From positions 1 through 41,812 of the forward strand of contig JAADFA010000109.1 of the NCBI GenBank assembly GCA_013153135.1: DNA of 41,812 bases, read 5' to 3'. Origin of the DNA: Chloroflexota bacterium (GTDB lineage Bacteria > Chloroflexota > Anaerolineae > Anaerolineales > DRMV01). Shown here piece by piece: positions 938 through 36,922 of the stretch; position 1 is the stretch's first letter, and every line of letters begins with the position of its first letter. A program made the position numbers and the translations under genes. The notes below the pieces were generated by a model, which saw only the letters and a list, made by a program, of their open reading frames with translations, was not told the origin of the DNA and did not search any database.

Positions 938-965
938 CCCTCACTTGAGATAAGACTTGAAAGCG

Positions 966-3150: not shown

Positions 3151-3188
3151 TGTAGCATTCCAGGCCTGACTCGAAGCGGAGGAGACTT

Positions 3189-12930: not shown

Positions 12931-12981
12931 TGCGGTCCTGGCTTGGGCGCCCCACAGCATCCCACGGAGGAGAGACGACCC

Positions 12982-17159: not shown

Positions 17160-17166
17160 GGCCCGG

Positions 17167-17763: not shown

Positions 17764-17786
17764 GGGATGTTTCCTCCTGGGCGATG

Positions 17787-17802
17787 TGTGACATTTGTCA
17801 CT
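17787..17802. promoter_or_regulatory. CRP/FNR-like palindromic operator candidate upstream of the nitroreductase gene
   Basis: TGTGA-CATTTG-TCACT. The core GTGACA-TT-TGTCAC (17788-17801) is a perfect 14-bp palindrome. It lies between an AT-rich -10-like patch (17803-17811) and the RBS. Confidence 0.45.
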
Positions 17803-17842
17803 TTTATAATAAGCCGAAATGCCCGCCTTGGATCTGCCATCT

Positions 17843-20920: not shown

Positions 20921-21199
20921 AGATCCTCCTGGGCCTGAACGGACGTAAGGTACATTGTACCGCAAGCGTAACCACCCGGCCCAAAGGCTGTTCGTCGCTC
21001 ATTGTGGATGGCTTCGATGTTGTGGCCAGGGGGTAAGTGACGCGCTTCGGCCCAGGTCCGGCCATCGACCGTCCCCCCTCGGCCTCCAACCCGGGCCTGG
21101 GCCGACCTTCATCACCGGATGGCCGGCGAAGCCCTCCGCGGGCACGGCGGCCCTCTTTGCGTTGGGAGCCTGCGGGTACACGGCCTCCCCGGTCCTGGG

Positions 21200-21223
21200 C
21201 TTTTGTGCTATCATAAACAAAAG
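21200..21223. promoter_or_regulatory. AT-rich inverted repeat at the 5' end of the signalling operon
   Basis: CTTTTGT-N10-ACAAAAG, located just upstream of the AGGAGGGGAG Shine-Dalgarno-like sequence of the first receiver gene. Confidence 0.4.
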
Positions 21224-21262
21224 TTCAGGAGGGGAGAGGCCACTGCCTTGAGGAGTGGAGCC

Positions 21263-21640
21263 GTGGCCGACGCGCTGATTTTATACGTCGAAGACAACGC
21301 AGACAACCGGATGCTGATTCGGCGTTTGTTGACCGCCGCGGGATATCGGCTGTTGGAAGCCGAGAACGCGGCCCAAATGTGGGAACTGTTAGCCCAGCAC
21401 ACACCTGATTTAATCTTGATGGACTTGCACTTGCCTCAGGTGGATGGATTTACGTTGACGCGGGAACTCGCCCAGCATCCTCAGTATGGCCATATCCCTG
21501 TGGTCGCGCTGACCGCTGATGTGCTCAAAGATACGCCAGAACGGTGCCGCCAAGCCGGTTGCATTGGTTATATCACAAAACCTATCAACGTAGATACGTT
21601 TCTAGAGCAAATTGAACACTTTCTGAATCGCTTATCTTGA
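21263..21640 (+). CDS. Stand-alone CheY-like response regulator receiver
   Basis: It has YVEDN, the phospho-acceptor context DLILMDLHLPQVDG, VVALTA and YITKP. The start is uncertain: GTG at 21263 after AGGAGTGGAG, or TTG at 21248. I rejected the upstream part of the 173-aa ORF. Confidence 0.8.
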   Translation: MADALILYVEDNADNRMLIRRLLTAAGYRLLEAENAAQMWELLAQHTPDLILMDLHLPQVDGFTLTRELAQHPQYGHIPVVALTADVLKDTPERCRQAGCIGYITKPINVDTFLEQIEHFLNRLS

Positions 21641-21649
21641 GGGAGTATC

Positions 21650-22096
21650 ATGGTTACGCAAGCCCCTGACCCGAACCCCACCCAGGAGGAGCCCAGCACG
21701 GGAGGTGACCGGCCGCTGGTTTTGGTGGTGGAGGATAATGTCTCGAATTTTGTCTTGATCGCTCGCATGTTAAGCTATATCGGCATTGATACTCAGTGGA
21801 AGACCTCAGGTTATGAGGTTGTGGAGTTCGCTCGACGCCTGCCGAAAGTAGATTTGATCTTGATGGATATTCGCCTGCCGTATGAAGATGGATATGAGGC
21901 TTTGAAAAAGATCCGAGCGAGCGAGGCCCTTAAAGATGTGCCTGTCATCGCGGTGACCGCGGAGGCGAGTCAGGAGCAAATGCGCAAGGCCCGAGAAGCC
22001 GGATTCAATGGGTTTATCGGCAAGCCGTTGGACCCGGATCGCTTTCCGGACCAAATTCGACGGTTGCTCGCGGGTGAAGAAGTTTGGGAGTTGTGA
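21650..22096 (+). CDS. Stand-alone CheY-like response regulator receiver
   Basis: 148 aa with VVEDN, DLILMDIRLPYEDG, VIAVTA and FIGKP. GAGGGAG lies upstream, and there is a 9-nt gap after the previous gene. Confidence 0.88.
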   Translation: MVTQAPDPNPTQEEPSTGGDRPLVLVVEDNVSNFVLIARMLSYIGIDTQWKTSGYEVVEFARRLPKVDLILMDIRLPYEDGYEALKKIRASEALKDVPVIAVTAEASQEQMRKAREAGFNGFIGKPLDPDRFPDQIRRLLAGEEVWEL

Positions 22097-22105
22097 GGTG
22101 CGGTG

Positions 22106-25100
22106 ATGCCGGAGGAGCCTTTGTTGCCGCTGGGCGCGGATGATGAGGAAGAGGAGCCCTTAGGCCATGATGAGCTGCTCATCCCCGTGGACCTAGGGAC
22201 CGACGAATGGTTGGAAGGCGGTGATGAGCAGCCAGACCAGGGCCGTCGGGCCCAGCCTCGTCCAGCGCAGAAAACTCGGCCCAAGTTCCGTCGGCGATTG
22301 CGGCGCCGCCTGACGGTGGTATTGACGTTGTTTGTGTTCTTGCCCTTCGTGGTTGGCATCCTCTGGCTGTTGTTCCAGGCTCGCGAAGAATGGCGCCGGA
22401 TGACGTTGGTCCAGGACGAGGTGGTGTTGGGCTTGGCTGTGCAAGAGGCACGTGATTGGTTGGTGGAGAGCCAATCGCGGTTGCGTAACGCGCTCCGGGA
22501 TCAAGATGTGCAAGAATCCATCGCCCTGATCCGCCGGTACCAAGACTGGCCCACCAGTCGGCGTTTCGTCAATGCTCGTAAAGCCTTATTCCGCCAGCTA
22601 GAGCAGGCTGTCAACCCCCCACGCGGGCTGCCCTATTACACCGATTTTTTGCTAATTGATGGCATCACCCAAGAGGTGGTGGCGGCGACCCGAGAGGAAT
22701 GGCAAGGGAAGCCCCTGGACGCGTTTCCTTTTAGCCAAGATGTTGTCGACGCGCTTATCCGGCCAGATATCCCCGAGCCCGGCGCGGTGTTGCATCAAGA
22801 AGTGCTCTTTCAATTCGCTGGCCTCGCGAAAGATGGCGAGGAGGCGTACCCCTTAGGGTTGCTCACCTTAGTGGCCGTTCCCGGCCCTGAGGAGGAGCCG
22901 CCCTATTTTTTGATCGCCCTGGGCCCCGCGTGGCCTCTTTATAACGCGCTCTTGAATTTGCAGCAATGGTTGCCTGAAGGTCAGGCTTTTTTGTGGGATG
23001 CTGATGGCCGGCTGTACCAGGTGGTTGAAGGGCAGCGTTTGGCCACGGTCTCGCCCAATAGCTTTTGGGCCCAATTGGGCACGTTGCTCAGTCGCGCTGT
23101 GCGCGAGTCGGCCCCCGAACTGTCGCTGCGGGAACGCTTGGCTTGGTACGTGCCTTTGCCTGAAACCCAGCTTATCGAACCTTATCAGCCCACGCGGAGC
23201 AAAGTGTTGCAAAGTGCGCCCACATGGGTGTTGCTTTACCAGACCCAAATGGGGTTGGCCGTGTGGTTGCCTGAGGCTAAGGTGGGGCTGAGCGCGTTCA
23301 CGCCCGTGGTCTCGTGGCTGGCAGCTTGGCGCAATTTGGCTTTTCAGGGCTTGGCCATTGGCGTGTTCATGCTCGTTTCGTTGGTCGTGGTCGCATGGCG
23401 CCTTTCGCGTTCCATCACTCAGCCCTTGAACCAGCTGGTGCAAAGCGCGGAACGGTTGAACCAAGGCGATTGGTCAGCTCGCGTGGATATTACCACCGAT
23501 GACGAAATCGGACTTTTGGGCTATACCTTCAACGAGCTGGCCGATAACCTGCAGGAGCTCTATACCACCATGGAGCTCGAACTCCAGCTGCGCACACGGC
23601 AGGTGCAGCTGGTTAGCGACTTCATCGACCTGGCCCTGGAAGGCATCCAGGATATGGGCCTCGCGTTGCGCACCATGCTCCAGTGGATTCAGGAGCGCTT
23701 CCCCAACCTGCCGCACACCAGCTTTTTGCTCTGGGATGAAAGCATGGGCCGCTGGGTTACCGGGGCCCGCGTGAGCCAATTGCCGCGTCAAGTGCAACGC
23801 ACCCTGACCGGGCTCGAGGTGCGTTTGGCTGATATGGTGCGCGAGCAGCTTGATTGGCAGCTCTGGATGCGCGGCGGCCGGGAGACCGCGCCCTTAATCC
23901 CCGAACCCCTTGTTGGGCTGGCTGGCGCACCCGTGCTCTTGGGTACGCGCTTGATCGGCGTGCTGATCGTGGGTACGGATCGCGAAGACGCGTTGGAACC
24001 CCACCGGGCCGACGCACTCCGGCTATTGGCTCGCCAGCTCGCGCTGATTTTAGAATATTGGCGCTTGTGGCATTCCGAAGCCCGAGAGGACCGACTGTTG
24101 CGCAGCGGCGAGCGCTTGCTGAGCCAGTTGCGCGACCTGCCGTATCCCAGCTTGCTATGGCCTACTATTGCCCAGATTCTGCAGCAAGAAGAGGCGCGCG
24201 AAACGCTGCTCTTGCGCCCCAAAGAAGGCCTCACCGATACCTGGGAGGTGGTGTACCCCGAAGACGCGAGCAGCGATATCCCCCCGCTGCGTGGGTTGTT
24301 GCCTTTAATCGCGGGTAAGCGTCACGTTGCTTGGCTGTTGGACGACGAGCAAACGCCTTTGGGGCAAGGACTCATGGGATTGGCTGGCTACGCGCGCAGC
24401 CGCAACTGGCGCCGTTTGGATGTGTATCCCATTCGCTCTGTGCGCGATGCGGACGAAGAGGGTGAGCGAGTGCTGGCGTTATGGGTCGTGGGTACATCGG
24501 CCTTGTACGCGCCCTCGGACACGTTCCACCGAATCCATACTTTCTTTGCATCAACTATAGCGTGGATGCACTATTACCTCGATTTGCGTCGCTGGGCGCG
24601 TATCTGGCGCATTGTTGAACGGGTCGCGACGTACGCGCCCGAAGCCCCCTCCGAAGGACATCTCTTTTTGCGCGCCTGGGACGAGATGTTATCGTACCTG
24701 CCCAAGGTTGATTTCTTCTTGGCCCAGTACGACTTGGATACGCAAGATTTTGTGGTCTACGTGTACCCCAGCGGACACCATTACTATCATACGACCATTA
24801 CACCCATCGAGCGCCGGCTGATCTGGCACGTGTTCCGCACGCAGCAGGCGCTGAACCTGGGTGGACGGCATAAGATCATCAGCCAGGTGGGCGATGCGGC
24901 CAGCTTGCCAACCCGGGTGCCAGAGTCCTGGGTCGGCGTGCCGGTGACGTTAGGTCGTCGCCAGCTGGGGGTCATCGGCTTGATGGATTGGGAGAATCCG
25001 CAGCGGTTTGATGATGAACACCTGACTTTCTTGCGCCGTTTGGCCCACGCGTTCAGTGGTCTGCTGTTCTACATCCAGCGCGAGCGTCGTTTGCGCCGCC

Positions 25101-25351
25101 GCAGCGAGCGCGAACGTTGGTTGCGCAGCTTCATCCAACATATCTCCTCATTGACCGACTTGCAGAACATTTTGGACTTTAGCGTACAAGAATTACGTCG
25201 CACCTTCCGCGCGCATCGGGTGCGAGTGCACTTGCGTCTGAGCAGTGAAGCAACGCGCGAAGCTCAGCACGAAACCAAGCAACAGGGGCACCAGCGCCCG
25301 TTGCCGCCGGATACGTCCCAACCGGGCCCGAACGGAGGCGAGCAAGCATGA
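22106..25351 (+). CDS. Membrane sensor: TM, ~330-aa extracytoplasmic domain, TM, HAMP, several divergent GAF-like domains; no output domain recognised
   Basis: 1081 aa. The TM segments are LTVVLTLFVFLPFVVGILWLLF and GLAIGVFMLVSLVVVAW. The HAMP is ITQPLNQLVQSAERLNQGDWSARVDITTDDEIGLLGYTFNELADNL. GAF-type endings include LIGVLIVGTDRED...LLARQLALILE and QLGVIGLMDWENPQRFDDEHLTFLRRLAHAF. Confidence 0.8.
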   Translation: MPEEPLLPLGADDEEEEPLGHDELLIPVDLGTDEWLEGGDEQPDQGRRAQPRPAQKTRPKFRRRLRRRLTVVLTLFVFLPFVVGILWLLFQAREEWRRMTLVQDEVVLGLAVQEARDWLVESQSRLRNALRDQDVQESIALIRRYQDWPTSRRFVNARKALFRQLEQAVNPPRGLPYYTDFLLIDGITQEVVAATREEWQGKPLDAFPFSQDVVDALIRPDIPEPGAVLHQEVLFQFAGLAKDGEEAYPLGLLTLVAVPGPEEEPPYFLIALGPAWPLYNALLNLQQWLPEGQAFLWDADGRLYQVVEGQRLATVSPNSFWAQLGTLLSRAVRESAPELSLRERLAWYVPLPETQLIEPYQPTRSKVLQSAPTWVLLYQTQMGLAVWLPEAKVGLSAFTPVVSWLAAWRNLAFQGLAIGVFMLVSLVVVAWRLSRSITQPLNQLVQSAERLNQGDWSARVDITTDDEIGLLGYTFNELADNLQELYTTMELELQLRTRQVQLVSDFIDLALEGIQDMGLALRTMLQWIQERFPNLPHTSFLLWDESMGRWVTGARVSQLPRQVQRTLTGLEVRLADMVREQLDWQLWMRGGRETAPLIPEPLVGLAGAPVLLGTRLIGVLIVGTDREDALEPHRADALRLLARQLALILEYWRLWHSEAREDRLLRSGERLLSQLRDLPYPSLLWPTIAQILQQEEARETLLLRPKEGLTDTWEVVYPEDASSDIPPLRGLLPLIAGKRHVAWLLDDEQTPLGQGLMGLAGYARSRNWRRLDVYPIRSVRDADEEGERVLALWVVGTSALYAPSDTFHRIHTFFASTIAWMHYYLDLRRWARIWRIVERVATYAPEAPSEGHLFLRAWDEMLSYLPKVDFFLAQYDLDTQDFVVYVYPSGHHYYHTTITPIERRLIWHVFRTQQALNLGGRHKIISQVGDAASLPTRVPESWVGVPVTLGRRQLGVIGLMDWENPQRFDDEHLTFLRRLAHAFSGLLFYIQRERRLRRRSERERWLRSFIQHISSLTDLQNILDFSVQELRRTFRAHRVRVHLRLSSEATREAQHETKQQGHQRPLPPDTSQPGPNGGEQA

Positions 25352-27078
25352 CCACTACGCCGGCCGCGCCTGAGCTCAATCAAGACGTATCCATGTTGCC
25401 GAACATTCAGCTCTACCGGCAACAGCTGCTTGGGATGTTTATCAATTTCATGGGCTTGGGCGCTCTGCCTATTCTATTGAGCTTTTTATGGCGCTTTTGG
25501 CACTTTGAGCGGCTCCGATATTTCTATTTGGCTTTCATTGCTCTAACCATCCTTTTATTGCTGAGCCGCCGTTTGTTTAGTTACCGCGTGCAGGTGACCT
25601 TGCTTATGGTTTTTCTGCACGTGTTGGCTGTCTATAGCGCCTTGTATTGGGGCATTTTCTCCGGTGGGCACCTGTTCTTCTTGGCCGCGCTGCTTATCGG
25701 GTCGCTCTTTTTAGATGTAAGCGGTGCAGTCCTCAATCTCATCGCGACCGCGGTAGTGCATACGATCTTGGCTTATGGGACGCTGGAACTGGGTTGGACC
25801 CTGGTAAGTGTATTCAAGGTTCCGCCGATCGCGTTCCAGTCACGCAATCGTTGGGTAGGCGCGACCATTACCTTTATCTTCGGCGCATCTACCTTGATTG
25901 TGCTTATCCACGCCCTGCAACGGCGCCTTGAGACCGCAGTAGAAGATAGTGTACACCTGGCCCAGATCCTCGATCAAGAACGGCAACGATTGGTCGCCCA
26001 GGAACGCCGTTTGCAACGCCGCGTGCGTCAAATCCGTGCGGTGAGTGAGATTATCAACGCGTTGAGTGAAATCCTCGATCCGGAACAGCTGGTTTGGGAA
26101 GTCGTCGATCAAATCCAGGCTCACTTTGCGTTGTATTACGTGGGTATTTTCACTGTCGACGCGGAATTTGAATACGCGATTTTGCAGGCTGGGAGCGGGG
26201 AAGCAGGTCGTAAAATGGTCCAGGAGGGGTACCGCCTCCCCTTAGGCGGCACCTCTTTGGTCGCTTGGGCCATCACGCAACGCAAGATGCGGGTCGCGCG
26301 CGATACCAAACTCGACCCTGGCCACTTCCCAAATCCCTTTTTGCCTTACACCCGCTCGGAAGTAGCTATCCCATTGATCGCACGCGGCGAGATTTTGGGC
26401 GCAATCACCATCCAATCCGACCGGCCCAATGCGTTCGATGAAGAGGACTTGCGTACGCTGCAAACCCTGGCGAACAGTGTTGCCCTCGCTTTAGCGAACG
26501 CGCAGCTTTTCCAACGTTTCCAATCTCAGCTGCGCGAGATTGAAGCTTTGCACCAACGGCTCTTTGAGCAGGCTTGGGTGGAACAGGAGACCGGTGAAAT
26601 CGAAGCCGAAGCCCATGGTGAACGCCTGCCGAGCAGGCCTGGGTACGAAGTCGAAGAGGAAGCACCAACGCACGTGGTCCGTCGACCGTTATTGCTATAC
26701 GGCCATCCCGTGGGCGAGCTTAGCCTTGAAGTGCCGGTATGGTCCGAAAGTGATGAGGAAATCCTGGAAGGTGTGCTCACCTCGTTGACCAATAGCCTGA
26801 TGGTGGCGCGGCTGCTGAGCTCGCTGCAAGCCTACGTCCGACGGGAGGAGATTCGCTATCGCTTGGCGGAACGGTTCAGTGAGGCTTTGGATTTTGATCT
26901 CTTAGCCCGGGTTACTTTGCAAGGCCTGCAAGAAGTTTTTGGCTTCAATGAGGGCTGGCTGCGTTTGGACGTGGAGGCCTTGTTGGCTGCGGAAGAGGCA
27001 GGTAGCCCATATGGGTCGCCCCGAGCCACGAGCCCTCCAGATGAACCCGGGGCGTCGTCTGCGGAGGAGAGCGCATGA
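25348..27078 (+). CDS. Polytopic (about 6 TM) membrane protein with coiled coil and a canonical GAF domain; no output domain recognised
   Basis: 576 aa, with an ATGA overlap with the upstream gene. The GAF reads HFALYYVGIFTVD...SEVAIPLIARGEILGAITIQSDRPNAFDEEDLRTLQTLANSVALALANAQLF. Confidence 0.8.
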   Translation: MTTTPAAPELNQDVSMLPNIQLYRQQLLGMFINFMGLGALPILLSFLWRFWHFERLRYFYLAFIALTILLLLSRRLFSYRVQVTLLMVFLHVLAVYSALYWGIFSGGHLFFLAALLIGSLFLDVSGAVLNLIATAVVHTILAYGTLELGWTLVSVFKVPPIAFQSRNRWVGATITFIFGASTLIVLIHALQRRLETAVEDSVHLAQILDQERQRLVAQERRLQRRVRQIRAVSEIINALSEILDPEQLVWEVVDQIQAHFALYYVGIFTVDAEFEYAILQAGSGEAGRKMVQEGYRLPLGGTSLVAWAITQRKMRVARDTKLDPGHFPNPFLPYTRSEVAIPLIARGEILGAITIQSDRPNAFDEEDLRTLQTLANSVALALANAQLFQRFQSQLREIEALHQRLFEQAWVEQETGEIEAEAHGERLPSRPGYEVEEEAPTHVVRRPLLLYGHPVGELSLEVPVWSESDEEILEGVLTSLTNSLMVARLLSSLQAYVRREEIRYRLAERFSEALDFDLLARVTLQGLQEVFGFNEGWLRLDVEALLAAEEAGSPYGSPRATSPPDEPGASSAEESA

Positions 27079-30000
27079 GCCAACCGACCCCCTTGGCTCT
27101 AACCAAGCCTCGCCGGTCGTTGCGCGGCATTTTGTGGCGGTATAGTATTGCGCTTATCGCCTTGTTCTTGCTGTTGGGTGGCGTGATCCTCTACTTCACC
27201 CTCGCGACTCAGCGTAGCCTGGAGCAGTCCGTCCGAGACGCGCGACCGGTATTGCTCTTGGAAGAGTCCAAATCGCTGATCGACCAAGCCTTGTTTTTGC
27301 TCAATAGCTTTGGCCGACGCATGGACGAATCCTCCACGCGCAGCCAGGAATTTCAGCTGCGTTTAGTCGGCCGTTTGCTCCCCATCCACTCCGCGCTGGA
27401 GGTCAATTTGCGGGAGTTCGAGGATTACATGAATTCCCTCAGCCCGGATGATCCCCTGGCCACGGAAGTGACGCGCTTGTGGGCTTTGCAGCGCGCGCTG
27501 ACCGAAGCCATGGCCGGTATCATCCAGAACGCGAACCGCGGCAATTGGGGACAGGTCGACTCCCTCATCCGGCACTTTAACGCCCTCTATAGGGACTACA
27601 ACAACGCATATAATTTCTTGCTCTTTCACCTCGAAGAACGGCAGGAGCGCTCGCGTGAACGCATTCAACGCTATTTGACCTACTCCGCGCTCTATCCCTG
27701 GGCCTTTGTCGCGCTGAGCACGATTTTGGTCTTGGGGTTCGCGACCTTCCTTATCCGACGGTTGGTCTCTCCAATTGAATACATGGCGCAGGGCATGCTC
27801 CGCTTCGCGGAGGGTGACCTGAGCTTTCGCTTCCCGGACCCTGGGGACCGGGATGATGAAGTTTCGTATTTGATGCGCGCGTTCAACGCGATGGCCCAAA
27901 GCATCCAAGAGGCCCAGTACCGCCTTGAACACCAGGTGGAAGAGCGCACCTTCGACCTCCAACGCCGCATGACCCAAATCCAGACTGCCGCGGATATCGG
28001 CCGTTTGGTGACCAGCATTCGCGACCTGGACGAACTGCTAGAACGTACGGTGCGCCTCATCGCGGAACGGTTTGGTTATTATCACGTAGGCGTGTTTTTG
28101 GTGGATCAGACAGGCTTATGGATTGAGCTGCGCGCGGCCAGCAGTGAATCCGGGCGGCAGCTGCTCAAGCGTGGGTTGCGTCTGCGCATCGGTCAGGAAG
28201 GCATCGTCGGTTTGGTCGCGCGCACGGGGCATCCGAAGGTTGTTTTGGACGTCGCCGCGGAACCTGCGTACAAGTTCATCTCCGAGCTTTCGCTCACGCG
28301 CTCAGAGATGGCGCTGCCCTTGCGGGTGGGCGATCGCATCCTTGGCGTGTTGGATATCCAAAGCACAGAGCCCCATGCGTTCTCGCCCGCGGATGTAACC
28401 ACGATGCGCATCGTGGCGGATCAGCTCGCGGTGGCTATTGACAACGCGCGGTTGTTGCAAGAGATGCAGCGTGCTTTGGAGTCGTTGCGATGGGCTCACC
28501 GCCAGCTCGCGGCGCAGGGTTGGAAGGAATACCTTCAGATCGCACCAGCCCACGCGTATCGTTTGGACGCGACGGGCCACTTCGAAGCCTTGCGGCTGCA
28601 AGATTCGCGTGATGGCACGCAGCCCCTCTCCGGCGCACCTGGGTACGAAGTTCAGATCCCGATCACAGTGCGCGGGCTGCGGGTCGCCATGTTGGTGCTG
28701 CGCCGTTTGGACCGACCCTGGAGCGCGAGCGAACGCGCGTTTTTGGAGGTTCTCAGCCAGCGCTTGGGCCTGGCCCTGGAGAGCGCGCGGCTCTTCCAAA
28801 TGAGCCAACGTCGGTCGCACTGGCTGCAAGGCGTGGTCGAACTCAGCCAATCCATCCGCTTGCAGGCTGAAGAGGACCTGCTCAATACCTTTGTGCAAGA
28901 GGCCCAATCGCGCTTTGGCCTGTGGCGGGTGGCGGTGTACCTCCAACTGCCTGACCGGGCCGGTGTGGCCTTGCGCGCGGTCGCTGGCGACAGCGCGGAA
29001 ACGTTGCGCCGCGAGGGCCACCAGGTCACCGCGCAAGACCGCGATCCTATCGCTCACGTGCTTCGGCAAGGGCAGTGGCTCTTCTTGCCCACGCCTGAGG
29101 CGCAGCAGCCCTATGGCAACACCGCGCCTGTAGCGAGCGGGCTCTCGCGGCTTATCGTGCCGTTGCGCTCGCAGGATGAGATTTTGGGCGTGGTGGATAT
29201 GCACGCGGCTGTGCCCCAGGCCTTTTTGGCGTCCGACCTGCCCATGCTCCAACTTTTGGCCGACGCGTTGAGCATCGCCTTGGCGAATACCCGCTTGGTC
29301 GCGGGCTTGCAGCGCCTGTTGCAAGAGCACCAAATTTTGCAGCAAGGGTTGACGCAGATCACCTTGGCTCACACCATGGACGAAGCCTTGCGCAAGGCCG
29401 CGCAGATCTTGCAGATGATGGACCCCTTGCAAACGGTTGCTGTCTACCAGGTACACCAAGATCTAGAAGACAATTTAGACCGCGTCGTGGCCGCAGGCGT
29501 GGATGCGGCTACCATGTGGCCGGACCAAATCCCCCTCGACGCAGCTGGGGTGCTCTCGCAAGCTGCCCGCGAACGCCAAGCCTTGTGGTGGGTCCAGCTG
29601 GCTTGGGAGCATGACGCCCCCGTGGGTCAGCGCGCGTTTATGGCTGTGCCCATCGTTTACGGTGAGCGCCTGTGGGGCCTCTTGGCTTTGAGTCACGTCC
29701 GGGCCGATGGTTACCATGTGGGCTCATGGGAGCTGTTGCAAAGCTTTGCCAGCACCCTCGCGGGTATCTTGACCAACTTGGAGCTGTTGGACGAAGTTCA
29801 GGCTCGTTCCGAACAACTGCAAACGCTGTACGAGTTTTCGAGTACGTTGGCTCGACACACGAAGATCTTTGATCTATTGGACGAAAGTACGCAATTCTTT
29901 GTGCGAATTTTCCGCGCATCGCACGCGGCCGTCTTCTTCTTCGATGGCTCGCCGCCCAAGAACATTACTTTGGTGGCCTGGGCCAGCAGCGAGACCACGG

Positions 30001-30596: not shown

Positions 30597-30620
30597 CGCT
30601 GTTTTGCGGGAGGGCGCAGG

Positions 30621-31427
30621 GTGCCACGACCTCGAAACCGTTGGGCTTTTATGCATCAGAAAGGTGGCGTAGCCAAGACCACCAGCGCGGCCGCCGTCGC
30701 CGGCGCGTTGGTGGAACAGGGATATCGCGTGCTGGCTTTGGACTTGGACCCCCAGGGCAGCTTGACGTTGGCCTTGGGCTTTCGCCCGCAAGAGCAAAGC
30801 CTGACCATTGCTCAGGTGCTGCAGTCCGATGACCCCACCCTATGGCAGCGCGCCGTTCGCCCAACGGAAGTGGAAAACCTCGACCTTATCCCCGCGAACG
30901 CGTCGCTCTCTGCCGTAATGTCAACGTTGAGCGGGAATTACTTGCGTTTGCGTAAGGCCCTGGATCGAATTACCACATACGACTTTATTATCATGGATAC
31001 ACCACCCGTCTTGCGCTTGGATATTGCCCCAGCTGTTGCGCTTGCAGCCGATGTATTGCTCATTCCAACACAGGCTGAGTATTTCTCGGTTTACGCCATC
31101 GCGGATGTGCTCAAATTGGTCCGTTGGGCTCGACAGTCGCACAACCCGGGCTTGATGTATCGCATCTTTATTACCATGTTTCAGAAGCGAAACCGCGCGC
31201 ACGCGTTGTTGCGTGCTCGGTTGGAAGCCACCTTTGGCGACGGGTTGTGCCAAACTGTTATTGGTGTGGATACGAAAGTGCGCGAAGCAGCCATCGCGGG
31301 TTTGCCTATTACTCACTTTGCTCCTCGTTCACGGGCTGCTTTGCAATATCGCGCGTTGACCCAGGAGGTCCTTGCTTATGTCCGAGAACAAAACCCCCAA
31401 ACGCCCTACCCGACGCCGAAAGCGTAA
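30621..31427 (+). CDS. ParA/MinD-family ATPase with an atypical P-loop (KGGVAKTT)
   Basis: 268 aa. The GTG start lies 5 nt after GGGAGGG. It has the deviant Walker A QKGGVAKTT (Ala at 30672-30674 where GKT Gly is expected), A' LALDLDPQGS, and Walker B FIIMDTPP. No ParB-like gene is in the window. Confidence 0.8.
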   Translation: MPRPRNRWAFMHQKGGVAKTTSAAAVAGALVEQGYRVLALDLDPQGSLTLALGFRPQEQSLTIAQVLQSDDPTLWQRAVRPTEVENLDLIPANASLSAVMSTLSGNYLRLRKALDRITTYDFIIMDTPPVLRLDIAPAVALAADVLLIPTQAEYFSVYAIADVLKLVRWARQSHNPGLMYRIFITMFQKRNRAHALLRARLEATFGDGLCQTVIGVDTKVREAAIAGLPITHFAPRSRAALQYRALTQEVLAYVREQNPQTPYPTPKA

Positions 31428-34400
31428 GGATGGGCGCAAAGCCAAGCGCATAGAGGAACGCTTGAACGCGTTGGGCCCGTGGGATGCTGGCGACGCGTTG
31501 GATTTTCAAGCGTTGCAGCAGGGTGCGGAAGAGGCCGATTCTTCGGCGCCTGACTCATCATCGACGGGTACGGGCCCCTTCCCGCGGCGTACGGGTGTGC
31601 TGGGGACGCTGGTTTGGCCCGGGACAGATAGCCTCGGCCGTCCGGACGCGACCACGGGGCTTTCGCTTGGTACGGACGCGTGGACGCAATTACTCCGCGC
31701 CCAGACCTTTGGCATGCGCGCGGAAGGGAACGTGATCCAGTTAACCGATGCGCCGCTCTCGCCTTATGGTGAGCAGAGCCTGCAGTCGCTAGAGCCGATC
31801 ATGAAAGAAGAGGGGGGCCAGGCTTTCCTCGCCCTGCCGGTGCAAGAGGACGACCGTTTGGTTCTTTTCGAGGCTGTGGCCCCCGCCCCTCGCAAATGGT
31901 TCGATGACGACGCGCATTTGATTCAGCAAACCCTGGAACAACTTTCGCGCGCGCTGGAACATGCCTACCTGTTCCAAGGCACGCAGGCCGCATTGGCCGA
32001 AGTTGAACGCCTGTATCGGGCCACCGCGCGGGTGTTGCAGGCCCAATCCTTCCCCGAGATCTTGCCCATTTTGGCGAAGTTTACGCCCTTGGGGCAGGGG
32101 GTTTACGCGTTGTTCCTCTTTCTGTACCACCCTGTGTCGGGTGGGCCTGGGCCGCGTCCGTTGCGCTTGGCTGCTCAATGGAGCCCACGGCCCATTGCCC
32201 CTGTGTCGTTCACGACCTTGGGGCCGCAAGACGCGCGCATCCCCGACCGGGTTGTATGGCTCGCTTCGGTGGATGAGGGCAGCCACCATTTGCCCGCGCC
32301 CCTGCGGTCGTACCTTTTGCGCAATACCTCGGCCCGTTCTGCGGTTATCGCACCACTGCGCATTGGTGCAGAGAAGATCGGCGTGGTGTACGGTTTGTAC
32401 GAACATCTCCCCGAGGTGCTGGAACGGGATAAGCGGGCCCTGGAGACCATCTTAGGCCAGGCTGCGATTCAGGTGCGCAGCCTCGCGTTGCATACCGAGC
32501 TGCGGGACGCGCTGGCTTTCACAGACCGCCTTTACCACGTCGCCTTGGCCTTGAACGAGGCCGAGTCGTTCCAAGCGGTATTGGATATTTTATGGGACTA
32601 CACCGCGCTGGGCCGCAATGCCCTCGCGGCAGCCATTATGTTGTTCGAACCCCTACTGAGCGACACGCAAACGCCTAATTGGGCAGAAGTGGTCGCAGGT
32701 CGTGTGGCGCCACCACTGGAAGCCGGGCGTCCGGAAGAACGTTGGCGTTTTTCGTTCCTGCCAGGCCAAAGTGAGGGAGCATCGCTGGCTACCGAAGATT
32801 TGGCTGTGCTGGATTCACCTGAGGCGGTCGAACGGCTACGGGAGGTGTTCGCGCGGCAGAATATCTATTGGGTTCGGGATACGAACAACGAACCTCTACT
32901 CGCGAAGCGTTTTGTTCAGTTTTTCCAAGAGCGTTTCGGCGTCCGCAGCGGCGTCATCGTGCCCTTGCGTTTGGGCGATCAGATCATTGGCGTCGTCACG
33001 GCCGCGTATGGGCACCGCATTGAGCCTTGGCCTGAGGACGAGCAGCAAATCCTCGCTGTCGTCGCGGCCCAAGCGGCGGTCCGTGTGCGTTCTCTGGCCC
33101 TGTTGGCTGAAAACGTGCGTCGGGCGCAACAGCTGGAGCTGGCCTCACAAATCGCCCGGGATATCAGCAGCACGTTAAACCTGCAGGAGCTGCTGGAGCG
33201 CGCCGTCAACCTGATTCGTGAACGGTTCGGTTACTACCACGCGGCCATCTTCTTGCTCGACGAGCGCGGTGAATACGCCGAGATCCGCGCGGCAACGGGG
33301 GAAATTGGGCAGATCATGGTTCGTAGTGGGCACCGGCTAGCGGTGGGTTCGCAATCTGTGGTAGGGCAAACCGCGGCCCGGGGGGAGCCGATCGTGGTTA
33401 ACGATACCCGCCAGAGCGAAATCCATCGCCCGAACCCGCTCTTGCCCGAGACGCGCGCGGAGATCGGCCTGCCCTTGCGCGTGGGCAATCGCGTCATTGG
33501 CGTGCTGGATGTGCAATCGCGCCATGCGTACGCCTTCCGGCCCGACGATGTGCGTGCGCTGCAGCTCTTGGCCGACCAGCTGGCCGTCGCGGTCGAAAAC
33601 GCCCGGGCCTACGAGCTCAACCGTCGCGCGCTCGAAAACTTGCGCCGGGCCGATGAGCTCAAGAGTCAGTTCTTGGCCAATATGAGCCATGAGCTGCGCA
33701 CGCCCCTCAACTCCATCATCGGCTTTTCGCGCATCATCCTTAAGGGCATCGACGGGCCCATCAACGACCTGCAACGCCAAGACTTGGAGGCCATCTACAA
33801 CGCGGGGCAGCACCTGCTCGGCCTGATCAACGACATTCTCGACCTTTCCAAGATCGAGGCCGGTAAGATGGATCTCATCTTTGAAGAGGTCGATGTCCCG
33901 CGCATTATTGAGAGCGTGATGGCCACAGCCAAGGGCCTGGTGAAGGACAAACCCGTCCGTCTGGAAGTGGATATCGAACCCGATTTGCCGCCCTTGCGGG
34001 CCGATGCGAAGCGATTTCGCCAAATTCTGCTCAACCTGATTTCCAACGCGGCCAAGTTCACCAAAGAGGGATACATCCGTGTCCGTGCGTGGCGCCAGAT
34101 GGACCCTGACTCCGGTTACACTGAGCTTATCCTCGCGGTGGAGGATACCGGGCCGGGCATCCCGCCGGAGCATCTGGAGAATCTCTTCCAGCCGTTCTAC
34201 CAGGTGGATGCTAGCCTCACGCGGGAAGTCGGCGGCACGGGTTTGGGGCTGGCCATTGTGCGCAACTTGGTCGAACTGCATGGCGGTCGCATCTGGGTCG
34301 AGAGCGAAGTGGGCAAGGGCACGACGTTTTACGTGGCCTTCCCCCTCACGCCTACGCGACGTAAGGAAGATGGCGGGGAAACGTTCCTCTTGGTCCTCGA

Positions 34401-35130
34401 GCCAGACGAAGAGCGGGTTAATCAACTGCGCCGTCACTTTTCGGTCCGTGGCTACCGCGTAGTACAGGTCAGTCAGCTGGGTGAGCTCATCGCACGCACC
34501 ACCACGTTGTACCCATTGGCCATCTTGATCAATCCCTTCTTGCCCCAGCTGATGGGCATTGAAGCGCTCCAAGAGTTGAAAAAACGTCCCGAGACTCGTC
34601 TTGTCCCAACGCAGTTCTTCGCCCTTGCCCTGAAGGATAACCGTGCCTACTTGCCTTGCGTGTATGCCATTACCACCAAGCCGCTGCAATCTGTCGATGT
34701 GCGCTACTTCCTCCAAATGGCTGAACTCAAGCCATACGAAACCGTCTTGCTCGTGGATCGGCACGACCAGCACGCGGCTCGGGTCCTCGAACAGTTCCGC
34801 GAGTTGGGCATCGCCAACGTCCAAGTAACCCAGGCTTTGACCCAGGACGTGCTGACCCAGCCGCCTACGTTGCTTGTGTGGGATCTGCTCGCTCCGGCCG
34901 AACCGGAAGCATTGGCCATTGTGCGGCGTTGGGTGCGCGAGGAACAACGCATCCGCTTCGCGATCGCGATGTTTGAGCAAGAATTTTCATCCGAAAGCCG
35001 CAGCCTGTTCTTAGAGCGGATGCAGCTCTATCGGCAACACTGCGCGACGTCCATGCCCGAGGGTCTCAGCCTCTTAGAACGGATGCTGTACTACATCGAA
35101 GCCCACCGCACAGGGCAATCTTCATCCTAA
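31378..35130 (+). CDS. Soluble multi-GAF sensor histidine kinase with two C-terminal degenerate receiver-like domains
   Basis: ~1250 aa with no TM segment and a Lys/Arg-rich N-terminus. It has about 4 GAF domains. The H-box is FLANMSHELRTPLNS (His codon 33688-33690), the N box NLISNAAKFT, G1 VEDTGPGI and G2 GGTGLGLAI. The ATG at 31378 lies 9 nt after AGGAGG and overlaps the ParA-like gene by 50 nt. Confidence 0.88.
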   Translation: MSENKTPKRPTRRRKRKDGRKAKRIEERLNALGPWDAGDALDFQALQQGAEEADSSAPDSSSTGTGPFPRRTGVLGTLVWPGTDSLGRPDATTGLSLGTDAWTQLLRAQTFGMRAEGNVIQLTDAPLSPYGEQSLQSLEPIMKEEGGQAFLALPVQEDDRLVLFEAVAPAPRKWFDDDAHLIQQTLEQLSRALEHAYLFQGTQAALAEVERLYRATARVLQAQSFPEILPILAKFTPLGQGVYALFLFLYHPVSGGPGPRPLRLAAQWSPRPIAPVSFTTLGPQDARIPDRVVWLASVDEGSHHLPAPLRSYLLRNTSARSAVIAPLRIGAEKIGVVYGLYEHLPEVLERDKRALETILGQAAIQVRSLALHTELRDALAFTDRLYHVALALNEAESFQAVLDILWDYTALGRNALAAAIMLFEPLLSDTQTPNWAEVVAGRVAPPLEAGRPEERWRFSFLPGQSEGASLATEDLAVLDSPEAVERLREVFARQNIYWVRDTNNEPLLAKRFVQFFQERFGVRSGVIVPLRLGDQIIGVVTAAYGHRIEPWPEDEQQILAVVAAQAAVRVRSLALLAENVRRAQQLELASQIARDISSTLNLQELLERAVNLIRERFGYYHAAIFLLDERGEYAEIRAATGEIGQIMVRSGHRLAVGSQSVVGQTAARGEPIVVNDTRQSEIHRPNPLLPETRAEIGLPLRVGNRVIGVLDVQSRHAYAFRPDDVRALQLLADQLAVAVENARAYELNRRALENLRRADELKSQFLANMSHELRTPLNSIIGFSRIILKGIDGPINDLQRQDLEAIYNAGQHLLGLINDILDLSKIEAGKMDLIFEEVDVPRIIESVMATAKGLVKDKPVRLEVDIEPDLPPLRADAKRFRQILLNLISNAAKFTKEGYIRVRAWRQMDPDSGYTELILAVEDTGPGIPPEHLENLFQPFYQVDASLTREVGGTGLGLAIVRNLVELHGGRIWVESEVGKGTTFYVAFPLTPTRRKEDGGETFLLVLEPDEERVNQLRRHFSVRGYRVVQVSQLGELIARTTTLYPLAILINPFLPQLMGIEALQELKKRPETRLVPTQFFALALKDNRAYLPCVYAITTKPLQSVDVRYFLQMAELKPYETVLLVDRHDQHAARVLEQFRELGIANVQVTQALTQDVLTQPPTLLVWDLLAPAEPEALAIVRRWVREEQRIRFAIAMFEQEFSSESRSLFLERMQLYRQHCATSMPEGLSLLERMLYYIEAHRTGQSSS

Positions 35131-35148
35131 GCCCATGGACGGAGGACC

Positions 35149-36861
35149 ATGCCAACCGCGGTGAAGATTACGGCCCGTTGTTTGGATTGTGGCGCGTCGG
35201 TCCCCTTCGACCCCGCCCAACCGCGCTGCCCCAAGTGCGGCAGCGAGTGGCTTCAGGCCGAATACGATTACGACTTGGCTCGAACCATATGGCTGGCGCA
35301 TCTGCACGAGCGCCCCTTCAGCCTCTGGCGCTACCATGAATTGCTGCCCATCCGCGAGGCGCCCCCTACCATCGCGATGGGCGCGGGCGGTACTCCCCTC
35401 CTGCGCTCCATCCACCTCGCGCCCATGCTCAAACTCTCGAATTTGTTCATCAAGGATGAACGGCAGAACCCCACCTCGTCTTTCAAGGACCGCCAGGCCG
35501 CGGTGACCATCGCGACCCTCAAAGAGGCGGGCCTGACCGAGATGGTGGTGGCCTCGACGGGTAACGTGGCCATCGCTTATTCCGCCTTCGCCGCGCGCGC
35601 GGGCATCAAACTGTGGGCTTTCCTGACGTCCCTGGTGCCCCAGGAGAAAATGCGCGAGGTCGCGATTTATGGAACCCGCCTGGTTAAGGTGACCGCGACC
35701 TACGACGAGACCAAGAAGGTGGCCGCGGAGTTCGCGCGGCAAAGGGGGTTGTATATCGACCGCGGATCCCGCTCCATTCCCACGGTCGAATCCATGAAGA
35801 CCTTGGCCTTCGAAATTGTGGAACAGCTCACGCAATTCGCGCCCGACGCGCGCTACGGTCGTCTGCCTTGGCGTGTGCCCGATTGGTACATCCAGGCCGT
35901 GAGCGGTGGACTCGGGCCCCTAGGCGTGGCCAAGGGCTTTCGCGAACTCTATCACATGGGCCTTATCGACCGTATGCCCAAGCTGGGCATCATCCAGGCC
36001 GCGGGGTGCGACCCCATGGTGCGCGCGTGGGAACAGGGCAAGGCCGTCGCGGATCCCCTGCCGCGGCCCAGTACTCACATCACCACCTTGGCCACGGGCA
36101 ATCCTGGGCGGACGTATACCTTCCTCTATGAGTACGTCCGCGAGCATGGCGGGGTGTTCGCCCGCGTAACTGATGAAGAGGCCTTCCGCGCGATGCACAT
36201 GTTGGCGAAGATGGAAGGCTTGTCTGTCGAGCCCGCGACGGCCGTCGCTTTCGCGGGCCTCATCCAATTGGTGCGTGAAGGGGTCATCCAGCCTCATGAG
36301 GTGGTGGTGGTCAACGCGACGGGGCATACCATGCCTATTGAATCCCACATCTTGGGCGACCGCTGGGCCCGGCATGTGGTCCTTGCCCAGCGTGGCGAGG
36401 GAGCCGCGGCTGAAGCCCCACAAGAGGGCCTGGTCGCCGCGCTTAGCAACTTGGCCGCGGAGCGCTACCCGCGCGTGCTCATCGTTGAAGATCATGAGCC
36501 CGCGCGCGTGCTGCTTCGACGCATTTTGCAATCCTTGGGCGATTACACCATCCTCGAGGCAAAGGACGGTTACGAGGCTTTGGAGATTGCTCAGCGTGAG
36601 GTCCCAGACCTTATCATCCTTGACTTGATGATGCCCGGGCTCGATGGCTTCGCGGTCCTTGATTCGCTCAAAGCTCATCCGAACACCGCGCATATCCCCG
36701 TGATTGTGGTCACGGCCAAATCGCTTAATGCGCGGGAGCAGCAGCGCCTTTTGAGCCAGCAGGCCAAATTGATGTACAAAGGTGAATTTCTGAGTGATGA
36801 ATTTTTGAACGAAATTCGCTCGGTCTTAGCGCAGATTCGCAATGGGACCGGGCGAGAATAG
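35149..36861 (+). CDS. Threonine-synthase-like PLP enzyme fused to a C-terminal response-regulator receiver domain
   Basis: 570 aa. It has an N-terminal Cys4 ribbon (CLDCG...CPKCG), GGTPLL, the PLP-lysine motif NPTSSFKDRQ (Lys codon 35485-35487), ASTGNVAIA and VSGGLGPLG. After a linker comes a receiver with RVLIVEDHEP, DLIILDLMMPGLDG (Asp codon 36622-36624), VIVVTA and MYKGEF. Confidence 0.85.
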   Translation: MPTAVKITARCLDCGASVPFDPAQPRCPKCGSEWLQAEYDYDLARTIWLAHLHERPFSLWRYHELLPIREAPPTIAMGAGGTPLLRSIHLAPMLKLSNLFIKDERQNPTSSFKDRQAAVTIATLKEAGLTEMVVASTGNVAIAYSAFAARAGIKLWAFLTSLVPQEKMREVAIYGTRLVKVTATYDETKKVAAEFARQRGLYIDRGSRSIPTVESMKTLAFEIVEQLTQFAPDARYGRLPWRVPDWYIQAVSGGLGPLGVAKGFRELYHMGLIDRMPKLGIIQAAGCDPMVRAWEQGKAVADPLPRPSTHITTLATGNPGRTYTFLYEYVREHGGVFARVTDEEAFRAMHMLAKMEGLSVEPATAVAFAGLIQLVREGVIQPHEVVVVNATGHTMPIESHILGDRWARHVVLAQRGEGAAAEAPQEGLVAALSNLAAERYPRVLIVEDHEPARVLLRRILQSLGDYTILEAKDGYEALEIAQREVPDLIILDLMMPGLDGFAVLDSLKAHPNTAHIPVIVVTAKSLNAREQQRLLSQQAKLMYKGEFLSDEFLNEIRSVLAQIRNGTGRE

Positions 36862-36869
36862 AAATCGCG

Positions 36870-36896
36870 GGCCCCGTCCGCCATCAGGACGGGGCC
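36870..36896 (+). terminator. GC-rich hairpin closing the signalling operon
   Basis: GGCCCCGTCC-GCCATCA-GGACGGGGCC (10-bp stem, 7-nt loop), 9 nt after the stop. It is followed only by TTGCC, so the U-tract is weak. Confidence 0.5.
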
Positions 36897-36922
36897 TTGC
36901 CGTGCTGTATACGACCACAGGG

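Follow-up and report, generated by a model that had tools for sequence, protein, structure and literature searches.

A conserved Anaerolineales gene cluster encoding kinase-less GAF receptors, a ParA-like ATPase, a soluble histidine kinase and a threonine synthase-like enzyme fused to a receiver

Among described systems, the cytoplasmic chemosensory cluster of Rhodobacter sphaeroides, in which PpfA acts in positioning via the N-terminus of TlpT, is the closest in organization to the gene cluster that we report here from a Chloroflexota bacterium of the order Anaerolineales; Vibrio ParC/ParP is a further comparator. The cluster is carried by a stretch of 41 812 nucleotides (nt), hereafter called the window (GenBank assembly GCA_013153135.1, contig JAADFA010000109.1, positions 1 to 41 812), and its genes are labelled g1 to g9 in their order along the plus strand. 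The R. sphaeroides cluster and the window have in common kinase-less receptors, a soluble kinase, CheY-like receivers, a fusion of a receiver to an enzyme (compare CheB) and a ParA-like ATPase, and in both the presumed partner of the ATPase carries a positively charged N-terminal extension (PMC7993993). Unlike Che systems, the receptors here are built on GAF domains and end in a truncated-GAF tail where the methyl-accepting chemotaxis protein (MCP) hairpin would be, the kinase is of the HisKA type (and a hybrid kinase in orthologues), and the output is a pyridoxal phosphate (PLP) enzyme. Searches of the nine products against Pfam and NCBIfam gave no match to the MCP signalling domain (PF00015), CheA (Hpt/P5), CheW, CheR or CheB. 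Because no Che family domain is present, we regard the cluster as an analogue, and not a member, of the Che systems.

The cluster also resembles three-component systems and branched many-to-one phosphorelays, in which sensing takes place apart from the kinase, inputs converge and receivers diverge. It differs from them in that the accessory sensors are paralogous to the input region of the kinase itself (by GAF subtype and by a junction module), and in that these sensors occur in arrays of 3 to 7 per operon, all ending in a truncated GAF domain. With the pairs built around ParA/MinD ATPases (ParB/Spo0J, SopB, ParG, MinE, PomX and McdB) the cluster shares an ATPase, g6, that bears the deviant Walker A motif and resembles Soj most closely, whereas the predicted partner here is a histidine kinase. 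A likeness to PomX lies in the N-terminal basic/amphipathic peptide of the kinase, which is followed by a Pro/Ala/Lys-rich linker (PMC7993993). The open-access literature that we searched described no enzyme of the threonine synthase (ThrC) fold, a PLP fold, as a receiver output, no kinase as a partner of ParA and no cluster of such composition, in keeping with a first-pass annotation of the window that knew of no comparable system.

Conservation of the gene cluster across genomes

One genome per species was scanned with a profile of the ParA-like protein, which yielded 80 loci (labelled L followed by a number), and gene order was judged in Anaerolineales loci with a ParA-like protein at least 42% identical and enough flanking DNA. 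In about 25 Anaerolineales species genomes, at 43–62% protein identity, the order was receiver, receiver, 3 to 7 kinase-less GAF receptors, ParA-like ATPase, GAF kinase, ThrC-like enzyme fused to a receiver (ThrC-like-REC) and EamA permease, and two long metagenome contigs displayed an identical gene order. The layout of L083 is that of the window, gene for gene, with g4 47% identical. Two stand-alone receivers open the cluster wherever its 5′ end is visible (L003, L035, L083 and L084), and the genes overlap or nearly abut across loci. The flanking genes differ completely from locus to locus, and the block from the first receiver to EamA is, therefore, a conserved unit. Judged by these comparisons, this is a real conserved gene cluster that goes beyond chance juxtaposition; the proposal of the first-pass annotation that the gene set forms one unit stood up to the synteny comparison that it had called for.

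Gene order might also be kept by plain descent within one bacterial order, without any functional coupling, and all of the loci do come from Chloroflexota, mostly from Anaerolineales. This explanation is already disfavoured, and we find it scarcely credible, because the order persists at such low protein identity despite wholly different flanks, because the overlaps between stop and start codons are themselves conserved, and because the pairing of the kinase with the ThrC-like-REC protein persists in a rearranged sister system.

The ThrC-like-REC protein falls into more than 120 clusters at 90% identity among sequences at least 60% identical, nearly all from Chloroflexota or Anaerolineae. Its sister group of fused proteins (ThrC-like-REC-REC; about 700 amino acids, two receivers, 53–57% identical to g8) likewise comprises more than 120 clusters at 90% identity. 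In 5 of 5 contexts, the gene for the sister protein directly follows that of a giant membrane multi-GAF kinase. At least one kinase-less dCache/HAMP-GAF gene lies upstream of the kinase in three of these five contexts, the one in L085 ending in the same truncated GAF, or stub, as the receptors of the window. Downstream come one or two genes for stand-alone receivers and one for a GNAT acetyltransferase, for which NCBIfam returned generic matches only. The two divergent designs share the kinase, the enzyme–receiver fusion and the CheY-like set; one combines these with a ParA-like protein, a soluble kinase and EamA, and the other with a membrane kinase and GNAT. As the pairing of kinase and ThrC-like-REC is kept in a family without ParA and with GNAT in place of EamA, it is the deep core of the system. 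The persistence of this pairing in a divergent second family also lends credibility to the earlier proposal that the PLP enzyme is the output, which would be under phospho-control.

The sister kinases are built in one piece: a sensor, HAMP, a signature GAF and a short GAF precede the kinase part in a single chain. The receptors of the window have the same layout without the kinase part, so they look like detached input modules. Two sister loci (L087:601-9999 and L089:1747-10008) encode single kinases of 3132 and 2753 amino acids with many GAF and PAS domains, which are among the largest sensor kinases known to us and may be fused receptor arrays.

Receptors, soluble kinase and ParA-like ATPase

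The receptors g3, g4 and g5 had been described by eye as membrane proteins lacking an output domain. Profile searches against Pfam and NCBIfam confirmed the by-eye domain calls and found no output domain in any of the three: HisKA, HATPase, GGDEF, EAL, HD, cyclase, PP2C and helix–turn–helix domains gave no match, even when sub-pieces were searched at E≤5.

The first receptor, g3 (22106–25351, 1081 amino acids), consists of a transmembrane helix, an extracytoplasmic domain of ~320 amino acids without a Pfam match, a second transmembrane helix, HAMP, degenerate GAF domains and a stub. Pfam recognized HAMP (7e-14) and GAF, and the transmembrane segments lie near residues 66–95 and 411–438. A g3-type gene is the first after the two receiver genes in L003, L083 and L084. 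Ahead of the first transmembrane helix, residues 1–75 of g3 (22106–22330) pass from a strongly acidic stretch (DDEEEE..., DEWLEGGDEQ) to a basic run (KFRRRLRRRL). The second receptor, g4 (25348–27078, 576 amino acids), has six transmembrane helices (a weak MASE11 match), a GAF domain, a beta-hairpin with helices, and a stub. In its AlphaFold2 model (predicted local distance difference test score, pLDDT, 82), helices span residues 17–146 and 169–241, the GAF domain residues 245–400, and beyond the GAF there is only the beta-hairpin (442–462) and helices (467–512 and 516–531). The third, g5 (27075–30596, 1173 amino acids), comprises a transmembrane helix, a helical sensor of ~160 amino acids, a second transmembrane helix, HAMP, five GAF or GAF-like domains and a stub; Pfam detected HAMP and four GAF stretches. 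Receptors of the g5 type are the conserved 'core' receptors, always adjoining the ParA-like gene, and their orthologous stub subtype, RSTNDPQxMIxTAxxELRxALG, recurs in over 17 loci in the receptor that immediately precedes that gene.

The stub was found at the C-terminus of all 102 of the 102 kinase-less receptor paralogues (27 loci). It is made up of the end of alpha5, a connector helix, and alpha1 and beta1 of a GAF domain, after which 5–20 residues lead to the stop codon, and its consensus reads ...NARLFEExxRRAxRERxxxEIxxKIxSxxDxxxILQTAxxELxxxLxxxxVxIQ. In g3 the stub (25115–25327) has the connector helix, alpha1 and beta1, and the rest of the GAF is absent; residues 1005–1075 match positions 8–63 of a custom GAF hidden Markov model (HMM), built iteratively from the cluster's own GAF domains, and the Pfam GAF model matches weakly at its positions 1–47 (E 0.085). 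The g5 stub (residues 1089–1134; 30339–30476) was assigned by positions 5–43 of the custom HMM and by alignment. The g4 stub (approximately 26860–26982), the most divergent of the three, was placed by alignment with the 102 stub sequences; it falls below the custom HMM threshold and is modelled as a helix and then coil. The usual receptor order is a full 'signature' GAF, a short GAF and the stub, with extra GAF domains in between in g5-type proteins, and identity among paralogues of the same locus falls from 53% in the signature (first) GAF to 35% in the short GAF and 31% in the stub.

Two modules of the receptors recur in the kinase. Comparison of the last ~115 amino acids of the receptors with the first structured ~115 amino acids of the kinases by hhalign gave a collinear match (probability 99.65%, E 5e-25), which identifies the receptor tail and the kinase N-terminal region as homologous junction modules, not complementary halves. 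The second shared module is the signature GAF of the receptors, which is closest to the GAF next to the dimerization and histidine phosphotransfer (DHp) region of the kinase (33127–33606; residues 586–745, numbered from 31372) and of the same subtype: the identity is 47% for the g5 GAF (residues 300–460) and 36% for the g4 GAF (residues 227–387), while most other GAF pairs in the matrix computed for the window share 17–29%. The first-pass annotation had suggested paralogous GAF and coiled-coil contacts between receptors and kinase, and both the common GAF subtype and the homologous junction module fit this idea; the contact itself is one that we infer. Pairing of the chains via homologous helices and GAF domains would be the most economical mechanism.

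Our initial idea for the stub had been different, namely that alpha1 and beta1 at the end of a receptor complete, in trans, the GAF fragment at the N-terminus of the kinase and so plug receptor into kinase. In a GAF fold, beta1 lies beside the last strand and alpha1 packs next to alpha5, an arrangement that suits such complementation. Every receptor ends after beta1 and every soluble kinase starts with a mere C-terminal GAF fragment (model positions ~90–161), without room at the kinase N-terminus for the missing ~50 amino acids, and both assignments are weakly backed by the Pfam GAF model. We downgraded split-GAF complementation, which now seems to us improbable, after the hhalign result, in which receptor tail and kinase N-terminus are collinear homologues, each with a fragment, a connector, alpha1 and beta1, and because the stub proved to be the least conserved segment among paralogues of the same locus. 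In addition, most receptors have a short GAF of their own directly before the stub, and the stub-ended receptor of L085 adjoins a kinase without the N-terminal fragment. A circularly permuted GAF, formed in cis from the short GAF and the stub, was ruled out by the g5-type receptors and by L085, in which a full GAF precedes the stub.

The soluble kinase itself, g7 (31378–35130, 1250 amino acids), is composed of a basic peptide, a low-complexity linker, a GAF fragment, GAF domains, HisKA, HATPase and two degenerate receiver-like domains, and no transmembrane segment was found in it. Pfam matched HisKA (5.7e-21) and HATPase_c (1.7e-33), with the H-box SHELRTP, read in FLANMSHELRTPLN. All of the soluble kinases share the arrangement of an N-terminal peptide, a low-complexity linker, the C-terminal part of a GAF and then full GAF domains. 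The kinase gene seems to be split into two or three open reading frames in L009, L035, L065 and L084, by assembly frameshifts or pseudogenization.

Directly upstream of the kinase, g6 (30621–31427, 268 amino acids) encodes a ParA/Soj-like P-loop ATPase with the deviant Walker A motif QKGGVAKTT. The signature lysine of that motif, together with HMM scores above the cut-offs for AAA_31 (6e-36; 124.5 bits, cut-off 27) and CbiA (61.5 bits, cut-off 25.4) in Pfam, places it in the ParA/MinD family. The best solved relative is Soj of Thermus thermophilus (2e-33 over residues 7–257). Orthologues are 43–56% identical, and their genes always have the last receptor gene on one side and the kinase gene on the other. 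The tail of g6 (...AYVREQNPQTPYPTPKA) shows no evident C-terminal amphipathic helix of the MinD kind.

The partners of ParA/MinD ATPases carry a positively charged N-terminal extension or peptide that is activating (Schumacher et al.; PMC7993993). The kinase begins with a peptide, MSENKTPKRPTRRRKRKDGRKAKRIEERLNALG (31378–31476), that we predict to contact and activate the ParA-like protein; the initial 50 nt of its coding sequence also form the 3′ end of g6. The motif M[SP]KK..[IL][DN]KRL[DE]xLFxD[IV], with a net charge of about +3, heads all 23 of the 23 kinase orthologues examined and is followed by a Pro/Ala/Lys-rich linker, and the stop codon of the ParA-like gene overlaps the kinase start by 11–50 nt in 22 of 22 loci. 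At four more distant Chloroflexota loci (ParA-like protein 35–42% identical), the same motif heads whichever protein is encoded next after the ParA-like gene; in L032 and L033 this is not the kinase but a GAF protein that ends in a stub. In the sister systems, with their membrane-anchored kinases, both the ParA-like gene and the peptide are absent. Because of the peptide, the overlap and the joint absence of ParA-like gene and peptide from the sister systems, the kinase is predicted to be the partner and cargo of the ParA-like ATPase. An earlier suggestion that the ATPase organizes the assembly spatially is, thus, strengthened in one respect, the conserved tie between ParA-like protein and kinase; a positioning role may follow. 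The core of the kinase peptide, [KR][LI]xxLFx[DE], resembles the N-terminus of Spo0J (GLGKGINALF).

The kinase-less GAF proteins may, alternatively, not be inputs of the kinase at all, and be instead co-expressed ligand-binders or scaffolds, or cargo or anchors of the ParA-like protein, with the kinase sensing through its own GAF domains. The kinase does contain at least four GAF domains, and orthologues also have PAS domains; the contact between receptor and kinase is a predicted one; and the two loci in which the peptide heads a stub-ended GAF protein suit this explanation. We consider it doubtful, if slightly less so than GAF complementation, since receptors and kinase co-occur in both variants of the system, with and without the ParA-like gene, since they share a specific GAF subtype and the junction module, and since the N-terminal part of the one-piece sister kinases is laid out as the receptors are, from the sensor through HAMP to the signature and short GAF domains, as would suit receptors that are detached input modules. 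We thus continue to favour receptors that act as inputs of the kinase.

The cluster opens with two stand-alone CheY-like receivers. The first, g1, has about 125–130 amino acids, depending on whether it starts at 21248 (TTG) or 21263 (GTG), and ends at 21640 (Pfam Response_reg 1.6e-26); its residues at the CheY positions D12/D13/D57/T87/K109 are E, D, D, T and K, and its orthologues head the cluster in L003, L083 and L084. The second, g2 (21650–22096, 148 amino acids; Response_reg 2.1e-22), has the canonical signature residues E-D-D-T-K and is 57–70% identical to its orthologues in L003, L035 and L084. A previous count of three canonical receivers is, thus, right for g1 and g2, whereas the receiver fused to g8 conforms to the signature only in part. 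The accompanying tally of one kinase with three canonical receivers overlooked the kinase's own receiver domains, which are intact in orthologues. In g7 the two degenerate receiver-like domains occupy residues ~1001–1252 (34372–35130; match E 7e-4), and the first reads E-P-N, the acceptor Asp being replaced by Asn, so that it departs from the CheY-like signature. Orthologues of g7 are hybrid kinases that end in two receivers, of which the first reads DDDSK in 16 of 18 and the second has the Asp but no Lys. This degeneracy is lineage-specific, occurring in the window and weakly or partly in L083, while the domain is intact in most orthologues, and phosphoryl flow may consequently differ between lineages. 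No Hpt domain, as a hybrid-kinase phosphorelay would require, was found in the products of the window or in the three kinases scanned in full; the kinase-internal receivers may act as sinks or regulators and not as relay steps.

The receiver-fused enzyme and the ends of the operon

The gene after the kinase, g8 (35149–36861), encodes a Zn-ribbon, a ThrC-fold PLP enzyme (PLP lysine Lys113), a disordered linker of ~45 amino acids and an atypical receiver (residues 443–564; 36475–36840; Response_reg 1.5e-20). Like threonine synthase and its fold-type II PLP relatives, including cysteate synthase, g8 has the ThrC fold; in the PLP lysine, the ASTGN loop and the N-terminal Zn-ribbon it agrees with many ThrC-like proteins. 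Pfam PALP matches at 6.6e-63, and K113, in SSFKDRQ, is invariant in all 60 of 60 family members, as expected of a fold-type II PLP enzyme; the ASTGN loop is likewise invariant in the family. The AlphaFold2 model (pLDDT 80.6; predicted template modelling score, pTM, 0.69) has as its top Foldseek matches the cysteate synthase CapA2 and threonine synthases, with a template modelling score to ThrC structures of about 0.8 (target-normalized). CheB, PleD and RpfG are comparable in joining a receiver to an enzyme and in being encoded next to a kinase; g8 differs from them in that its receiver is C-terminal, follows the disordered linker and is without the canonical alpha4-beta5-alpha5 face. The receiver retains E-D-D-T (the acidic pocket, the acceptor Asp and the Thr) with the Lys displaced by two positions. 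It is CheY-like in part, as the Pfam match covers positions 1–83 of 111 and the model has no beta5.

The sequence of g8 sets it apart from bona fide threonine synthases. It scores below all NCBIfam ThrC cut-offs (PRK08197, 254.4 against 303; TIGR00260, 145.7 against 167.1; PRK05638, 183.7 against 421), and it belongs to a separate subfamily that lacks NSxNxxRxEGQK and GNxGN; g8 itself carries the C-terminal receiver as well. Where ThrC proteins read ASTG[ND]T, NSxNxxRxEGQK and GNxGN, g8 reads ASTGNV, GSRSIPTVESMK and SGGLGP, and the altered motifs (ASTGNV, G[SA]RSIP[ST]VE[SA]MK and SGGLGP) are present in all 30 of 30 family members sampled, as well as in the REC-REC sister family and in unfused relatives. 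In T. thermophilus numbering, the replaced positions are T88, N154, R160, Q164 and the G-N-x-G-N loop including N188, which are invariant in the five solved ThrC proteins used as references (T. thermophilus, Aquifex aeolicus, Mycobacterium tuberculosis, Bacillus subtilis and Arabidopsis). These residues reportedly bind the phosphate of O-phosphohomoserine, as stated by Omi et al. in 2003, a report that our literature search did not confirm. Other Zn-ribbon homologues of ThrC have kept these motifs intact and, at about 33% identity, group separately.

Searching 1.84 billion representative proteins with the g8 enzyme domain delimited a subfamily marked by FKDRQ, E[SA]MKT and QAVSGGxGP, which holds about six REC-fused clusters at 50% identity together with unfused proteins. 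Among unfused relatives, the closest (50% identity) comes from a cyanobacterium and bears the annotation 'threonine synthase', and Arg208 of g8, which is nearly invariant and lies near the altered loop, could bind a phosphate. For these two reasons we keep true ThrC activity in g8 in play, as a minority prospect.

The first-pass annotation had noted that EamA and the E. coli threonine/homoserine exporter RhtA belong to one superfamily, and a fuller form of that thought is that g8 is the genuine threonine synthase of the cell with a regulatory receiver, that the system tunes threonine synthesis, and that EamA exports threonine or homoserine as RhtA does. Consistent with this, the fold is that of ThrC and the closest solved relatives are threonine synthases, the PLP lysine and ASTGN loop are invariant, the closest unfused relative bears the threonine synthase annotation, and the family is as highly conserved (at least 60% identity, more than 120 clusters) as a core enzyme would be; a tblastn search with T. 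thermophilus ThrC on ~1.6 Mb of cluster-flanking DNA, which matched only ThrC-like-REC genes, adds weak support. Nevertheless, a protein that lies under every NCBIfam ThrC equivalog cut-off, whose family has replaced the motifs invariant in five solved enzymes, and whose intact-motif Zn-ribbon homologues form a group of their own, does not pass by sequence as a bona fide threonine synthase, and the link to threonine and RhtA is weak for that reason. The presence of GNAT in the place of EamA in sister systems suggests an unusual amino acid over threonine, and EamA/DMT is a very large family, in which g9 scores far below the cut-off of its best NCBIfam match (TIGR00950, 52.5 against 230). We therefore hold the threonine explanation to be unlikely, though the strongest of the alternatives.

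In this superfamily of enzymes, fusions to regulatory or accessory domains seem to be common. P0226, the only one scanned of a group of ThrC-like proteins of ~610–635 amino acids (P0226, P0242, P0243, P0258, P0275, P0290 and P0312), carries a C-terminal LeuA allosteric/dimerization domain; as relatives bear this domain at the same position, a C-terminal regulatory add-on appears usual in this group of enzymes. P0303 has an N-terminal inositol-monophosphatase domain on a ThrC-like protein. In L025 (7303-11932), a Chloroflexota metagenome-assembled genome, a ParA-like orthologue (41% identical, with the motifs HQKGGVAKTT and RTRAALQY kept) is flanked on one side by an amino-acid permease and on the other by a Zn-ribbon PALP enzyme that lacks a fusion and is 27% identical to g8, and there are no GAF proteins or kinase nearby. 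This single case could hint at a link between ParA and a PLP enzyme that is independent of the kinase.

The last gene of the conserved cluster, g9 (36923–37861, 312 amino acids), encodes an EamA/DMT permease. Its two EamA repeats (Pfam 5.2e-28) establish membership of that family and are shared with RhtA and the EamA/DMT exporters, as is its position beside the gene for an amino-acid-type enzyme; it has no specific similarity to RhtA, and sister systems have GNAT in its place. EamA lies directly 3′ of the ThrC-like-REC gene in about 20 loci (50–58% identical) and begins 4–60 nt after it in relatives, on which grounds we count it as probably belonging to the operon. The 61 nt spacer between g8 and g9 holds a GC-rich hairpin, GGCCCCGTCC/GGACGGGGCC (36867–36900, arms 36870–36896, plus strand), whose fold (36858–36925) has an energy of −30.3 kcal/mol (z=−3.0). 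This hairpin had been taken to close the operon. It is real, but no U-tract follows it, EamA is conserved downstream, and a terminator scan did not call it and gave no terminator signal above shuffled sequence, so that it does not mark a clear operon end; it is a possible attenuator or stability element rather than a proven end. The previous count of nine genes within 21200–36896 is accordingly one too high, since eight genes (g1–g8, all on the plus strand) lie within that interval and the number is nine if EamA is included.

Re-reading of the junctions showed the reported gaps of 9, 9, 24 and 18 nt, the two ATGA overlaps (25348–25351 and 27075–27078) and the 50 nt overlap (31378–31427) all to be exact, and a purine run precedes each start, as expected of the Shine–Dalgarno-like sites described. 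The non-coding region before the operon, put earlier at ~340 base pairs, is present, with a length of about 327 nt (20921–21247). It separates g1 from a divergent S-adenosylmethionine (SAM) hydroxide adenosyltransferase gene (ATG at 20920) and is presumed to be the promoter region; a promoter consensus scan found no sigma-70-like site above shuffled expectation in it, and an Rfam scan of the whole window matched no family, with no riboswitch or leader in this region. The divergent gene (20072–20920, minus strand; DUF62, with SAM_HAT_N and SAM_HAT_C) does not adjoin the cluster in L083 or L084. It is probably unrelated to the cluster, and we dropped it as a system member because it is not a conserved neighbour.

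Further upstream, the flank is housekeeping in nature (Rho, MetRS, RadC, HflX, an aminotransferase, S1, FabH and XseA), as is the downstream flank (PolX and LepA), and no thr-pathway genes are among the flanking genes. Four sizeable open reading frames outside the cluster have no Pfam match: 16581–17840 (minus strand), 12943–13743 (plus), 2438–3169 (plus) and 19434–20075 (minus). GC content is 56–57% in window positions 1–4000, against 60–67% in most other 2 kb windows, and within the cluster it drops to 57% at 24–28 kb.

Proposed mechanism and significance

We propose, at what we regard as an even chance of being right as a whole, that the cluster is a many-sensors-to-one-kinase two-component system typical of Anaerolineales. 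The paralogous membrane proteins, each consisting of a sensor, transmembrane helices, HAMP or MASE-like region, signature GAF and C-terminal junction element without a catalytic output, would sense signals and hand their state to one soluble multi-GAF histidine kinase through the pairing of homologous GAF and connector-helix modules. The ParA-like ATPase would hold and distribute the kinase, engaged via its N-terminal basic/amphipathic peptide. Phosphoryl groups would pass to both stand-alone CheY-like proteins and to the receiver that g8 joins to its ThrC-fold PLP enzyme, switching the activity of the enzyme, and the co-transcribed EamA permease would move its amino-acid substrate or product. 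The gene and domain content, the conserved order, the shared modules and the N-terminal motif are direct observations; the protein–protein contacts, the direction of phosphotransfer, the role of the ParA-like protein and the reaction of the enzyme are read from sequence and are to be taken as predictions.

Several points weigh against this mechanism. The stub is the least conserved part among paralogues (31% identity), whereas stronger conservation would be expected of a docking surface common to them, and the AlphaFold2 monomer of g4 has beta1 of the stub as coil. Operon status rests on spacing and synteny, promoter and terminator signals being no higher than shuffled expectation. Most orthologous kinases are hybrids with an intact receiver, yet the cluster has no Hpt, so that the phosphoryl path may differ between the window and its relatives, and the g8 receiver is placed on a disordered linker (pTM 0.69). 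In sum, the first-pass interpretation is supported as to the unit, the receptors without output domains and the tie between kinase and ParA-like protein, and not as to the threonine/RhtA link, the hairpin end and the tally of receivers.

A bolder form of the proposal, which we offer as speculation and think unlikely to hold in full, is that a GAF-built receptor–kinase assembly, resembling a chemosensory array and positioned by ParA along filament cells, switches on a ThrC-fold enzyme that makes a non-proteinogenic compound derived from an amino acid; in that assembly, the detached sensor paralogues would meet the shared soluble kinase at the homologous GAF/connector junction. The compound might be exported by EamA here and acetylated by GNAT in the sister system, and might serve as an intercellular signal or antimetabolite.

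If the proposed mechanism is true, the cluster would represent a second, non-Che way of coupling many receptors to one kinase, in which the receptors are detached paralogues of the kinase input region. It would also make a histidine kinase a partner and cargo of a ParA/MinD-type ATPase, extending the cargo list of that family, and would provide a ThrC-fold PLP enzyme controlled by a receiver, that is, direct phospho-control of amino-acid-type chemistry and not of transcription. With more than 120 protein clusters at 90% identity in either ThrC-like-REC family, the system is widespread. Anaerolineae are abundant filamentous bacteria of sludge, sediments and groundwater, and are hard to culture; hypotheses derived from sequence are, for that reason, the main entry point to their biology.

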